Positions 19,164-22,513 are shown, counted from the first letter of the stretch. The stretch: 64,000 nucleotides of DNA from Escherichia coli (GCF_003790525.1 NZ_CP033633.1); one strand, 5' to 3'. Numbers and translations are program-made. Notes: generated from the sequence alone by a model not told the origin.

Positions 19164-19973
19164 ATGTCAGGCTCCGTTATACACAGCCAGTCTGCAGCCA
19201 TGGTACCGGCAGTGTATTCTGCCGGACAGTCTGCACAACTTCCTGTTGCCATTGATTATCCGGCAGCTCTGGCACTCCGCCAGATGTCGATGGTTCATGA
19301 TGAACTGCCGAAATATCTGCTGGCTCCCGAGGTGAGTGCCCTGCTTCATTATGTCCCGGATCTGCGCCGCAAGATGCTGCTGGCCACTCTGTGGAACACC
19401 GGCGCGCGTATTAATGAAGCACTAGCGCTGACGCGGGGGGATTTTTCGCTCACGCCTCCGTATCCGTTTGTGCAGCTGGCCACTCTGAAGCAGCGGACAG
19501 AAAAAGCCGCCAGGAGGGCAGGAAGGATGCCCGCCGGTCAGCAGACTCACCGTCTGGTTCCGCTCTCCGACGCCTGGTACGTCAGCCAGCTGCAGACGAT
19601 GGTGGCCACACTGAAAATCCCCATGGAACGGCGTAATAAACGAACAGGCAGGACAGAGAAAGCGCGGATCTGGGAAGTGACGGACAGAACGGTCAGGACC
19701 TGGATTGGGGAGGCGGTTGCCGCCGCTGCTGCTGACGGTGTGACGTTCTCTGTTCCGGTCACACCACATACGTTCCGCCATTCCTATGCGATGCACATGC
19801 TGTATGCCGGTATACCGCTGAAAGTTCTGCAAAGCCTGATGGGACATAAGTCCATCAGTTCAACGGAAGTCTACACGAAGGTTTTTGCGCTGGATGTGGC
19901 TGCCCGGCACCGGGTGCAGTTTGCGATGCCTGAGTCCGATGCGGTCACAATGCTGAAAAACAGACATGTATAA
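19164..19973 (+). CDS. resD: Tyrosine site-specific recombinase ResD (plasmid multimer resolution)
   Basis: 269 aa directly after ccdB as in F; C-terminal R...H-x-x-R...Y integrase residues. Confidence 0.8.
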   Translation: MSGSVIHSQSAAMVPAVYSAGQSAQLPVAIDYPAALALRQMSMVHDELPKYLLAPEVSALLHYVPDLRRKMLLATLWNTGARINEALALTRGDFSLTPPYPFVQLATLKQRTEKAARRAGRMPAGQQTHRLVPLSDAWYVSQLQTMVATLKIPMERRNKRTGRTEKARIWEVTDRTVRTWIGEAVAAAAADGVTFSVPVTPHTFRHSYAMHMLYAGIPLKVLQSLMGHKSISSTEVYTKVFALDVAARHRVQFAMPESDAVTMLKNRHV

Positions 19974-20110
19974 TAAGTCACAATTATGAATTGTGATTTC
20001 TTCTATAAAAAAGAGACCACTGCAATATGTGATCTCTTGTATTATTTCATAATTGGGTGATGCTGCCAACTTACTGATTTAGTGTATGATGGTGTTTTTG
20101 AGGTGCTCCA

Positions 20111-20386
20111 GTGGCTTCTGTTTCTATCAGCTGTCCCTCCTGTTCAGCTACTGACGGGGTGGTGCGTAACGGCAAAAGCACCGCCGGACATCAGCGCTAT
20201 CTCTGCTCTCACTGCCGTAAAACATGGCAACTGCAGTTCACTTACACCGCTTCTCAACCCGGTACGCACCAGAAAATCATTGATATGGCCATGAATGGCG
20301 TTGGATGCCGGGCAACCGCCCGCATTATGGGCGTTGGCCTCAACACGATTTTCCGCCATTTAAAAAACTCAGGCCGCAGTCGGTAA
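20111..20386 (+). CDS. insA: IS1 InsA
   Basis: 91 aa canonical. Confidence 0.9.
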
Positions 20387-20808
20387 CCTCGCGCATACAG
20401 CCGGGCAGTGACGTCATCGTCTGTGCGGAAATGGACGAACAGTGGGGCTATGTCGGGGCTAAATCGCGCCAGCGCTGGCTGTTTTACGCGTATGACAGGC
20501 TCCGGAAGACGGTTGTTGCGCACGTATTCGGTGAACGCACGATGGCGACGCTGGGGCGTCTTATGAGCCTGCTGTCACCCTTTGACGTGGTGATATGGAT
20601 GACGGATGGCTGGCCGCTGTATGAATCCCGCCTGAAGGGAAAGCTGCACGTAATCAGCAAGCGATATACGCAGCGAATTGAGCGGCATAACCTGAATCTG
20701 AGGCAGCACCTGGCACGGCTGGGACGGAAGTCGCTGTCGTTCTCAAAATCGGTGGAGCTGCATGACAAAGTCATCGGGCATTATCTGAACATAAAACACT
20801 ATCAATAA
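20305..20808 (+). CDS. insB: IS1 InsB reading frame
   Basis: 167 aa canonical. Confidence 0.9.
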
Positions 20809-20818
20809 GTTGGAGTCA

Positions 20819-21730
20819 TTACCAACTATTACTGTCCAGAATCTCCACGGCTGAAATATATAGCGGAGAAACTCCACTGCCTTCAGGAAAACGGACAATG
20901 ACATCATGATTATTACTGGACATCGTATAACCAGCCTCAACATAATTCCCTGTCTCAGAAATAACGCCATCTTCCTGGATTTCGGGATTAGACCGAACTG
21001 GAGTATTCATCTGACCCACACTTAATACCAGGTCCGGTAGATTTGGTGATACAGGGGCACTGTAAACATCTTTAATATTGGTTCCCGGACGACTCCGGTC
21101 CGGAACTGGAACGGCATCCACTACTGGCACTGTCATCGGAATACCTCCGATAATAGCCATATATTGTGTACCATTCTGCATAAGGTCCGTCAGACGATAT
21201 TTTACCGGTACATTATTACCCGCTGCTGGTAACTGGCTGGCAGGGATATCCGTTACCTGCTCCAGTTGCTGTGTAACCATAAGACGAATAATTTTTTGCT
21301 CATTTCCGGAAGCAGGCTCCAGACGGGCAAAAGAAACAGCAGCCGGGCGAGACGGTTCTGGCAAACCACCACGTAAACCATTTTCAAGAACTGTTCGTGC
21401 AGCGGAAACTTTCTCGTTTCCCCAGGGGCTATGCACACTGACAGACCATCCCGACCAGTCTCCCTCTTCAAGTTCCTTATCAAGAATAATCCGGCGAATA
21501 ATTCCAGGAAAAAGAACACTTTGTACAAGTGCGATACCTTGTGGGCTGTAATCCCCCCATCCCGGAGGCATGGATGGAGCGAGACCTGATGAGCCTCCGG
21601 GTTTCACATCACCGCCCGGAATTCGTCCTGTTGACGGCCACACAACCATTGTGTCCCCGTAATCAATACCTTCTGTCGGTACACTACCTTCATTATCACT
21701 CATAGAAAACCTCTTTGACTTTAAAAACAA
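20819..21730 (-). pseudogene. cba: Colicin B activity gene, N-terminal about 300 codons, truncated by IS1 copy C
   Basis: MSDNEGSVPTEGIDYGDTMVVWP... with the DTMVV TonB box and glycine-rich translocation domain; frame ends at the IS1 boundary, pore-forming domain absent. Confidence 0.6.
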
Positions 21731-21747
21731 TCAATTAAAATTAAATA

Positions 21748-21778
21748 CTGTACATATAACCACTGGTTTTATGTACAG
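21748..21778. promoter_or_regulatory. Overlapping double LexA (SOS) box of the colicin promoter
   Basis: CTGTACATATAACCACTGGTTTTATGTACAG, two overlapping CTGT-N8-ACAG-like boxes upstream of cba. Confidence 0.55.
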
Positions 21779-21816
21779 ATCAAAAATTACGCCGCTGTGT
21801 TTTCTCTGTCAAGACT

Positions 21817-22377
21817 GTGGATTTCAATTTTTGTGAAAACGATCAAAAAACAGGCACTCACACCACGTGCTATTCTCGCCTGATACCACAAAAAACTGCA
21901 CAAGCATTACTGGTCAGGACGGCAGGAAGAATGCCCGCCGGCCAGCAGACTCACCGGCTGGTTCCGCTCTCGGACTCCTGGTACGTCAGCCAGCTGCAGA
22001 CGATAGTGGCCACACTGAAAATCCCCATGGAACGGCGTAATAAACGAACAGGCAGGACAGAGAAAGCGCGGATCTGGGAAGTGACGGACAGAACGGTCAG
22101 TACCTGGATTGGGGAAGCGGTTGCCGCCGCTGCCGCTGATGGTGTGACGTTCTCTGCCCCGGTCACGCCACATACGTTCCGCCATTCCTATACGATGCAC
22201 ATGCTGTATGCCGGTATACCGCTGAAGGTCCTGCAGAGCCTGATGGGGCATAAGTCCATCAGCTCAACGGAAGTCTACACGAAGGTGTTTGCGCTGGATG
22301 TGGCTGCCCGGCACCGGGTGCAGTTTTCGATGCCTGAGTCCGATGCGGTCACAATGCTGAAAAACAGACACGCATAA
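21817..22377 (+). pseudogene. Duplicated 3' fragment of resD (no N-terminus)
   Basis: From about 21909 the DNA is a near-identical direct repeat of 19515-20055; the N-terminal 33 residues of the ORF are unrelated. Confidence 0.7.
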
Positions 22378-22513
22378 TTCATAAATCATAATTATGAATT
22401 GTGATTTATTCTGTAAAAAAGAGACCACTGCAATATGTGATCTCTTGTATGCAAGGGGGCTTAAACAGTATGAATTCACAAGTGTGATTTCATAAGTAAT
22501 AACTTTTTGATTA

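Follow-up and report, generated by a model that had tools for sequence, protein, structure and literature searches.

The RepFIA region of the F plasmid has the described order rfsF-oriV1-ccdAB-resD (PMC4398462). The resD product is a tyrosine recombinase for multimer resolution and rfsF is its recombination site. Module switching and plasmid fusion at rfsF are documented (PMC8004404, PMC9412624, PMC8299605). The IncF ColBM plasmids (e.g. pEC_B24, NC_014382.1, and pHNSHP24) have one integrase gene copy, followed by a tail and the intact colicin cluster cmi-cma-cbi-cba, with a 414-bp hypothetical gene upstream in place of ccdAB and hyp513-stbB-parM as the right flank. For DBS-3/DBS-4 of the Shigella boydii plasmid p2246-CTXM, the passages of PMC5052281 retrieved by a term search describe ccdBA, cmi-cma and cbi-cba beside parA-stbAB-impCAB, with IS1 truncating both cmi and cba. 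A duplicated resD 3′ end is not mentioned in those passages.

The DNA analyzed here is a stretch of 64,000 nucleotides from Escherichia coli (NZ_CP033633.1), referred to below as the window. It displays a locus that shares the order rfsF-ccdA-ccdB-resD with F. The gene after resD in F is repE, and the last ~15 nt of F resD and the DNA downstream are unrelated to the window. Downstream of resD the window has instead a tail with hairpins, the remains of a colicin gene and another resD copy, which is truncated. The repeated resD sequence is very probably the footprint of the capture of a ColBM cluster into the maintenance region of a plasmid of the I-complex/IncK type, with later erosion by IS1. 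It is a known kind of plasmid scar and not a new element, and the locus leaves current understanding unchanged. The main value of the analysis is in correct annotation: the second resD is a pseudogene remnant, the colicin genes are dead and the ResD/rfsF system is predicted to be intact.

The rfsF site is found at positions 18222–18249 and consists of two 10-bp inverted repeats separated by 8 bp of spacer, AGATCCGAAAACTCCTGGTTCCGGATCC. A search with the published rfsF pattern AGATCCGNAANNNNNNNNTTNCGGATCT (PMC8299605) gives this one match in 64 kb, with one mismatch (0.02 expected by chance). F shows an exact match at the same position relative to ccdA, the 28-mer being ~380 bp upstream of ccdA in both. 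The genes ccdA (18638–18856) and ccdB (18858–19163) are on the plus strand and form a toxin-antitoxin pair; the coordinates of these open reading frames were mapped from the annotation of plasmid pE16-3 via a 99.9% alignment. Homology to one relative (L002) begins at 18223 and to another (L010) at 18237, i.e. at rfsF, and the locus provides further instances in which a mosaic boundary falls precisely on rfsF.

The intact resD is at positions 19164–19973 of the plus strand and encodes 269 aa. Residues 51–240 match the Pfam family Phage_integrase (PF00589, E = 2.6e-17), the sequence carries the HTFRH and EVYTKV motifs, and over 266 aa it shares 96.2% identity with the ResD of F. Nucleotide positions 19650–19930 are identical to the F-plasmid allele. 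With rfsF and an intact resD, the multimer-resolution system is predicted to be still complete.

Copy A of the direct repeat is at 19511–20042 and recurs as copy B at 21915–22450, both on the plus strand. Of 536 columns in a MAFFT alignment, 504 are identical (94.0%); there are 28 substitutions and one 4-bp indel, which is located just 3′ of the resD stop codon. Chance cannot give a 536-bp match at this level of identity, and outside of these limits the flanks of the two copies are unrelated. The duplication of the resD 3′ end reported in the initial annotation is thus real, and its description can be refined. The left limits, previously placed at 19515 and 21909, are 19511 and 21915. Copy A ends at 20042 and not at 20055, the segment 20043–20055 being non-recurring and equal to the first 13 bp of cmi-proximal sequence. 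The part of resD that is repeated is 463 of 810 bp, the 3′ 57%, where two-thirds had been estimated, and the “few substitutions” of the earlier description understate a divergence of 6%.

Both copies continue past the resD stop codon, for 69 bp in copy A and 73 bp in copy B. The right end of copy A is joined to the colicin M/B cluster, and copy B is contiguous with a backbone that contains a copG-like open reading frame (22514–22789) and a ParA-type ATPase gene (22783–23427). Both of these are on the minus strand, identified as open reading frames and from annotations in relatives, and the ATPase matches ParA_partition (NF041546, E = 6.7e-34); the operon converges on resD. The resD sequence in copy B (ΔresD, 21915–22377) retains codons 117–269 only, and its NCBIfam match is limited to the C-terminal recombinase part; it is therefore a pseudogene.

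The coding differences between the copies are 16 synonymous and 8 nonsynonymous (dN/dS 0.15). This ratio, the distinct tail linkages and the F-allele patch in copy A point to an origin of the copies in two resD-bearing lineages. As judged from their sequences, the copies are different resD alleles and not a recent in-place duplication.

As first described, IS1 and a truncated colicin gene are found between the copies. The colicin gene is the 5′ fragment of cba (cba′, 20824–21703, minus strand), which has codons 1–293 of 511, is cut by IS1, and is 100% identical to residues 1–293 of the annotated ColB in pEC_B24. The pore-forming C-terminal domain is missing, and none of cbi, cma and cmi is found in the window. 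Both colicin production and immunity have been lost. The cba promoter/upstream region (21704–21914, minus strand) includes a LexA-box-like site at 21763–21778. It is the same promoter region as in the IncF ColBM plasmids up to 21915: two ColBM plasmids of the F type, L005 and L007, show 97.7% identity out to 21915, and one of these, pHNSHP24 (L005), shows 99.0% out to 21912. The upstream region of colicin E1 is ~88% identical.

At 21914|21915 the colicin upstream DNA is joined to mid-resD in an illegitimate junction, ...CATTACTGGTC|AGGACGGCAGG... When the window is set against both the F-type flank and a resident resD that is intact, ~1 bp of microhomology is seen at this point (CTGGTC|AGGACGG). 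There is no IS end and no rfsF at the junction. The F-type flank remains homologous, beyond the junction point, to the region upstream of colicin E1 in a small ColE1-type plasmid; thus the junction in the window is derived, and the F-type context is ancestral.

The IS1 element is at positions 20056–20823 of the plus strand (768 bp), as defined by its terminal sequences, GGTGATGCTGCC...GGAGTCATTACC, and the insA/insB open reading frames. It is one of three IS1 copies in the window and is 99.1%–99.3% identical to the other two. Its left flank is TTCATAATTG and its right flank is AACTATTAC (20824–20832), so that a 9-bp target duplication is absent. Plasmids pE16-3 and AR_0085 (L001 and L006) have this same IS1 within cba as a simple insertion, and the target duplication AACTATTAC is found on both of its sides. 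Window positions 18600–20055 correspond to 3001–4456 of pE16-3 (L001 numbering), and 20056–23500 to 7217–10661. The match is 99.9% on either side of a missing 2,760 bp immediately left of IS1, and window positions 1–18680 are 99.97% identical to pE16-3. The missing segment (4457–7216) has no match anywhere in the window. The 13-bp sequence TATTTCATAATTG at 20043–20055 is identical to pE16-3 positions 4444–4456 and to L007, in both of which the sequence runs on into cmi. It is what remains of this cmi-proximal DNA, and the IS1 deletion ends at its right edge.

IS1 produces adjacent deletions, a classical behavior of the element reportedly described by Reif and Saedler in 1975. In such a deletion IS1 and one flank are kept, the target duplication disappears, and DNA formerly located at a distance on the other side, here 2.76 kb away, comes to abut the element. 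The right flank is kept in the window and the adjacent 2,760 bp are missing, which indicates a probable IS1 adjacent deletion in this lineage; the loss of a target duplication that is present in pE16-3 and AR_0085 is the pattern expected after such an event. The same product could also come from recombination between two direct IS1 copies, and the two are indistinguishable here. Nested endpoints are found in relatives, e.g. in pF1022-2 a deletion from the same IS1 extends into resD. The region of p2246-CTXM is an L003-type relative of the window locus with an independent IS1 event, at another cba position (window 21112), and 284 bp of cmi-side DNA are kept. The exact endpoint 20055|20056 is found neither in the plasmid collection nor among the complete E. 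coli genomes, a search for it returning other, independent IS1 truncations, and it thus relies on the present assembly.

The relatives include plasmids with an empty locus, ccdAB-resD-copG-like-parA, of which there are hundreds. A reconstructed single-copy locus (ccdAB, the resD 5′ part, copy B and downstream DNA) is contiguous in at least 381 plasmid records, with a top identity of 98.4%. Among the empty-site relatives L010 comes closest: up to 19510 it is 99.7%–99.8% identical to the window, past this point it is only ~94%–96% identical to either copy across the coding part, and its tail is 98.6% identical to that of copy B. The junction between the copy A tail and cmi is shared with the IncF ColBM plasmids and is present in 568 plasmid records, most of them IncF plasmids that have the integrase gene only once. 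Two copies together with the same cba-promoter|mid-resD junction are found in ~60 complete plasmid records, which span several replicon types and countries, among them IncK2/Z, IncI-gamma/K1, IncFIA/FIB and Klebsiella IncFIA plasmids. CP027674.1 is free of IS1 and displays resD-cmi-cma-cbi-cba-ΔresD in one piece, with an intact cba and the same junction. No record covers a construct of an F-type empty site, in which the integrase tail is joined to the DNA after cba in IncF plasmids; thus there is no evidence for a discrete ColBM cassette whose right end is defined.

These relatives suggest the following history. The starting point would be a backbone with a single locus, rfsF-ccdA-ccdB-resD-tail-copG-like-parA. 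The donor would be an IncF ColBM plasmid, in which an integrase gene of the resD type and the ~70-bp tail directly precede cmi-cma-cbi-cba. A segment of this plasmid, with one end inside the integrase gene and the other ~210 bp upstream of cba, would have entered the resident plasmid. The left join would be formed by homologous recombination inside resD, and the right join, which is visible in the window, by an illegitimate event connecting colicin upstream DNA to codon 117 of the resident resD with ~1 bp of microhomology. The product would have the colicin cluster between a full-length mosaic resD, on the side of copy A, and copy B, which is the displaced 3′ part of the resident resD. IS1 then entered codon 293 of cba, where relatives show its 9-bp duplication, and in the lineage of the window it later deleted the 2,760 bp at its left end, comprising the cba 3′ part, cbi, cma and cmi; comparison with pE16-3 shows that this deletion stopped 13 bp beyond copy A.

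Homology-facilitated illegitimate recombination and Campbell-type integration are described for natural transformation and suicide vectors. The locus shares with this class a putatively homologous side (resD), an illegitimate side, and direct copies of the anchor at either end of the insert; here the class is proposed to operate in plasmid-plasmid exchange. The route may have been homology-facilitated illegitimate recombination of the one-ended kind, the Campbell-type integration of a circle that had been excised, or a cointegrate followed by deletion. A test for A/B chimeras found no chimera or parental pair within <12 differences of a sampled allele. No sampled allele equals either parent, which counts against the proposed history; the resD alleles are heavily mosaic, so that the labels donor and resident are blurred. 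The locus and its relatives form a four-stage series with extant representatives: the empty site, colicin capture, IS1 insertion, and nested IS1 deletions. This shows the movement of a bacteriocin cluster from IncF to I-complex/IncK backbones with a conserved maintenance gene as the homology anchor, and its subsequent decay.

The initial annotation suggested IS1-mediated cointegration or recombination between two resD-bearing replicons. The proposal of two lineages stands, as the dN/dS ratio and the linkages of the copies show, and the assignment of IS1 as the maker of the repeat fails, since the IS1-free CP027674.1 has the same two copies and junction. Precise excision of IS1 is very rare. 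That replicative transposition of IS1 fused two resD replicons and placed the copies on either side of it might be proposed from the location of IS1 between copies of different allelic origin and from the three IS1 copies in the window. However, two directly repeated IS1 elements would be expected at the replicon junctions and none are seen there, the boundary of copy B is colicin DNA and not an IS1 end, and in pE16-3 and AR_0085 neither boundary of the repeat abuts IS1, which is there a simple insertion within cba with its 9-bp duplication. This origin is very improbable; IS1 acts here as a deleter and not as the agent that fused two replicons. A fusion of replicons of another type, by ResD at rfsF or by homologous recombination in resD, followed by a large deletion from upstream of cba to mid-resD, is unlikely but has an appreciable chance. 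The rfsF site is present and intact, homology to two relatives starts exactly there, the right junction is a deletion-type illegitimate join, and switching and fusion at rfsF have precedents in the literature cited above. Such a fusion would however need a deletion of tens of kilobases, no intermediate has been found, and the usual ColBM donors have the 414-bp hypothetical gene and not ccdAB upstream of the integrase gene, so that a pure rfsF fusion would not set ccdAB beside copy A.

Slippage or unequal exchange might have duplicated the resD 3′ end in tandem and in place, the copies then diverging before the colicin genes and IS1 inserted; this would account for repeats that are direct and in register. 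It is hardly credible, since the copies are 6% apart while their flanks are 99.9% identical to relatives, the dN/dS of 0.15 is unlike that of a decaying pseudogene copy, the right ends of copies A and B each match a different widespread context, and copy A has within it the F-allele tract. The chance that the duplication is an assembly artefact is practically negligible. The IS1 deletion endpoint that is peculiar to the window might be cited in its favor, but the same two-copy junction is in the ~60 complete plasmid records, the copies differ at 32 positions and would not be confused or collapsed, and the deletion junction has the anatomy expected of an IS1 adjacent deletion.

The suggestion that recombination between the repeats would delete the intervening block is plausible; they are a possible RecA substrate, with a longest identical run of 95 bp. 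The resD-3′ repeats may also serve as recombination handles, which would make ColBM a homology-driven translocatable unit. RecA exchange between the repeats would free a circle with the island and one hybrid 535-bp copy, which would re-enter any resD-type plasmid by a single crossover and regenerate the repeat-flanked structure. If true, this would explain the presence of an identical junction on IncK2/Z, IncI-gamma/K1, IncFIA/FIB and Klebsiella IncFIA plasmids; we regard it as rather improbable.

Two palindromic motifs follow the resD stop codon and were reported to be in both copies. This holds for AAGAGACCACTGCAATATGTGATCTCTT, which is identical at 20011–20038 and 22419–22446; TCACAATTATGAATTGTGA is exact in copy A only (19978–19996) and has one mismatch in copy B (22386–22404). 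The first palindrome, TCACAATT-ATG-AATTGTGA (19978–19996, plus strand), is a candidate terminator hairpin of the resD transcript. It folds as an 11-bp stem with only two G-C pairs (z = −3.95 for the tail), and a hairpin at this position is kept in all three sequence variants. The second (20011–20038, minus strand) is terminator-like, with a stem of 10 contiguous pairs, four of them G-C, on the minus-strand RNA followed by TTTTTT; on the plus strand there is a C·A mismatch. A terminator scan finds hairpin 2 of copy A, and the copy B tail, TTTTAC, is just under the T-run threshold. The fold z-scores are −3.5 and −3.9.

Resolution sites and terminators had both been considered for these palindromes. 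The terminator function is plausible from the scan and the folding, and the two conserved hairpins are most likely face-to-face terminators of the convergent resD and parA operons. As resolution sites they find no support: the rfsF consensus AGATCCGNAA-N8-TTNCGGATCT has no match at ≤3 mismatches in 19974–20042 or 22378–22450, the sole rfsF match being the one upstream of ccdA, and the tail palindromes are predicted not to be recombination sites. The region downstream of F resD, which had been suggested for comparison, has neither palindrome. By eye, hairpin 2 has no resemblance to a Xer dif/cer core, and an Rfam search over 18000–24000 gave a single match, a spurious snoRNA (E = 0.71).

There is a minor but appreciable chance that palindrome 1 is a protein-binding site, for the copG-like/ParA partition system or for ResD, and not a terminator. 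A related 13-mer, TGTGATTTCATAA, is present exactly at 22483–22495 and 23563–23575, flanking the copG-like/parA operon, and forms a 28-bp palindrome at 22468–22495; in addition, one variant of the tail is a 26-bp near-perfect palindrome. Against this, palindrome 1 is kept in hundreds of ColBM plasmids where the tail is followed by cmi and not by copG-like/parA, it has no rfsF match, and ω-type heptads (WATCACW), a mark of partition sites, are not enriched in the tail. The C-to-T change of copy B is moreover tolerated, as G·U, in plus-strand RNA only.

Hairpin 2 is invariant across 10 loci, and its 30-mer is exact in 100 metagenome contigs. The position after ...CTCTTGTAT was considered as a docking site for multiple cassettes and rejected, with only two downstream contexts in these contigs: the downstream sequence is of the copG type in 66 and of the cmi type in 33.

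A direct repeat of the resD 3′ end is present in the window, as displayed by a repeat finder and two alignments. Copy A is at positions 19511–20042, and copy B (ΔresD, a pseudogene) is at positions 21915–22450. The initial annotation had proposed this duplication with slightly different limits; copy A ends at 20042, not at 20055, and the left edges are those given here. The alignment of the two copies has 536 columns, 504 of them identical (94.0%), with 28 substitutions and a single 4-bp indel directly 3′ of the stop codon. The repeat comprises 57% of resD and a 69–73-bp tail, and outside these limits the flanking sequences are unrelated to each other. 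Between the copies are 13 bp of cmi-proximal DNA (20043–20055), an IS1 on the plus strand (20056–20823), the 5′ part of cba on the minus strand (20824–21703; colicin B codons 1–293, matching annotated cba at 100% identity) and the cba upstream region with a LexA-box-like site (21704–21914).

Over 462 coding sites the copies show 24 differences, 16 of them synonymous and 8 nonsynonymous. The dN/dS of 0.15 indicates that the copies diverged as working genes on separate plasmids. In addition, the right end linked to cmi is that of copy A, and the right end linked to the copG-like/parA genes is that of copy B.

An empty-site construct was made by joining in silico ccdAB, the 5′ portion of resD, and copy B together with the DNA that follows it. 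This is contiguous in 381 plasmid records (top match RCS51_p, 98.4%), and NZ_CP027343.1 is a further example. The integrase tail is directly joined to the colicin cluster cmi-cma-cbi-cba in 568 records, the majority of which are IncF plasmids with one integrase copy. The junction between the cba upstream region and mid-resD is found in about 60 records, and CP027674.1 has the full two-copy arrangement with cba intact and without IS1. The proposed process would start from a backbone with the empty site (ccdAB-resD-copy B tail-copG-like/parA) and no colicin genes; the colicin cluster would then have been captured into its resD region.

Insertion of IS1 into cba is the next step. Plasmid pE16-3 and the AR_0085 plasmid have the same IS1 inside cba, flanked on both sides by AACTATTAC. 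The window matches pE16-3 on both sides, minus 2,760 bp directly left of IS1 (cba 3′, cbi, cma and cmi), and the missing segment has no match elsewhere in the window. The right AACTATTAC flank is retained and the left copy is lost. The comparison indicates that a deletion from the IS1 left end removed 2,760 bp of the island, and the anatomy of the endpoint, judged from the sequence, is standard for IS1 adjacent deletion. The exact endpoint was found nowhere in the plasmid or E. coli complete-genome collections and is private to this assembly. In pF1022-2 a deletion from the same IS1 goes deeper, into resD, and independent IS1 truncations of the island are present in other lineages, one being described in PMC5052281. 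The earlier interpretation of a union of two resD-bearing lineages is borne out by the dN/dS value and the distinct right-end linkages, but its assignment of IS1 as the cause is not; CP027674.1 has the arrangement free of IS1, and IS1 is a late deleter. The locus is an ordinary mosaic scar assembled from well-known parts.

The right junction, ...CATTACTGGTC|AGGACGGCAGG..., displays ~1 bp of microhomology when compared with the F-type flank and intact resD. Past the junction, the F-type flank shares homology with DNA upstream of colicin E1 on a small Col plasmid. The F-type context is thus the ancestral one, and the breakpoint in the window is derived. The cba promoter/upstream region (21703–21910) shares ~88% identity with the sequence upstream of colicin E1 on small ColE1-type plasmids (NZ_CP079888.1), and in IncF ColBM plasmids such as L007 this homology extends into the next gene. 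There appears to be a conserved upstream module common to colicin operons on very different plasmids. A 186-aa open reading frame with a GTG start (21817–22377) begins in colicin upstream DNA and ends in ΔresD; its predicted product would lack the box I arginine region and correspond to no more than the recombinase's C-terminal catalytic half. IncFIA plasmids of Klebsiella, Shigella and E. coli (pE20-FIIA, positions 6311–6833, and relatives) share the cba/ΔresD junction of the window; in them ΔresD has gained 6-bp and 8-bp deletions, and most of the island was removed by a different IS1 event.

The best empty-site relative is 99.7–99.8% identical to the window up to 19510, then ~94–96% identical to both copies in the coding part; its tail is 98.6% identical to that of copy B. 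By sequence, resD alleles are strongly mosaic, and none of the sampled alleles is reproduced by an A/B chimera. Accordingly, both the left crossover and the precise route are inferred; one-ended recombination, circle integration, and a cointegrate that later underwent deletion are the candidates. Even the intact resD is a patchwork: it matches the F-plasmid allele exactly at 19650–19930 and not at 19516–19649, and in pMTY9803 the F-like tract starts at 19516. The pattern suggests that co-resident resD genes have undergone gene conversion repeatedly. A more divergent 792-bp integrase allele (~86% identical; pDR162-CEF-C, L012 and L014) has the same tail, followed in some cases by cmi and in others by copG-like/parA. 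Thus the tail and junctions predate the split of integrase alleles, or were exchanged between them.

The tail holds two palindromes, which had been suggested to be terminators or resolution sites. Neither matches the pattern of rfsF, the site on which ResD recombines, and F has neither of them after its resD; they are not resolution sites of the known kind. The hairpin folds fit terminators. Hairpin 2 is unchanged in all 10 tail-bearing loci examined, and 100 metagenome contigs contain its 30-mer without a mismatch. Read on the minus strand, it has a 10-bp stem and then a run of six T; read on the plus strand, its stem contains a C·A mismatch. This is consistent with a candidate terminator of the copG-like/parA operon. 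Palindrome 1 has three sequence variants, with the hairpin kept in all three, and copy B's C-to-T change can be accommodated, as a G·U pair, in plus-strand RNA only; palindrome 1 fits a candidate terminator of resD. A less likely alternative is that palindrome 1 is a protein-binding site, a reading kept in consideration by related 13-mers on both sides of the parA operon.

Each end of this operon has an exact copy of the 13-mer TGTGATTTCATAA, one at 23563–23575 and the other within a 28-bp palindrome, GTATGAATTCACA-AG-TGTGATTTCATAA, at 22468–22495. They may serve the ParA/RHH pair as operator or partition sites. The downstream context always changes directly after ...CTCTTGTAT, and only two contexts occur (cmi and copG-like/parA). 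A docking site was considered at this position; with two contexts only, the pattern is better accounted for by one ancestral junction.

The window plasmid is IncK2/Z-type and shares 99.97% identity with pE16-3 over bases 1–18680. An F-type maintenance module makes up the left part of the locus: rfsF (18222–18249), ccdA, ccdB and an intact 269-aa resD (PF00589 match, 96.2% identical to F ResD). Across the 64 kb, the published 28-bp pattern (PMC8299605) is matched at this rfsF alone, with 0.02 matches expected by chance. The placement of rfsF relative to ccdA is identical in the F plasmid, and the arrangement is in line with the order rfsF-oriV1-ccdAB-resD described in PMC4398462. Beyond copy B come the copG-like open reading frame and the ParA ATPase gene, both on the minus strand, with parM next. 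The rfsF is also a precise mosaic boundary. The window is 99.2% identical to pF1022-2 rightwards from 18223 and unrelated leftwards, their rfsF spacers differ, and homology to RCS51_p (99.9%) begins at 18237, within rfsF. This is consistent with ResD-mediated module switching, as reported for IncI1 and IncR plasmids. Two further IS1 copies are at 8358–9125 (plus) and 10610–11377 (minus), in inverted orientation with ~1.5 kb between them, which in pE16-3 holds an endonuclease/exonuclease/phosphatase-family gene; in sequence, the pair looks like a putative composite transposon.
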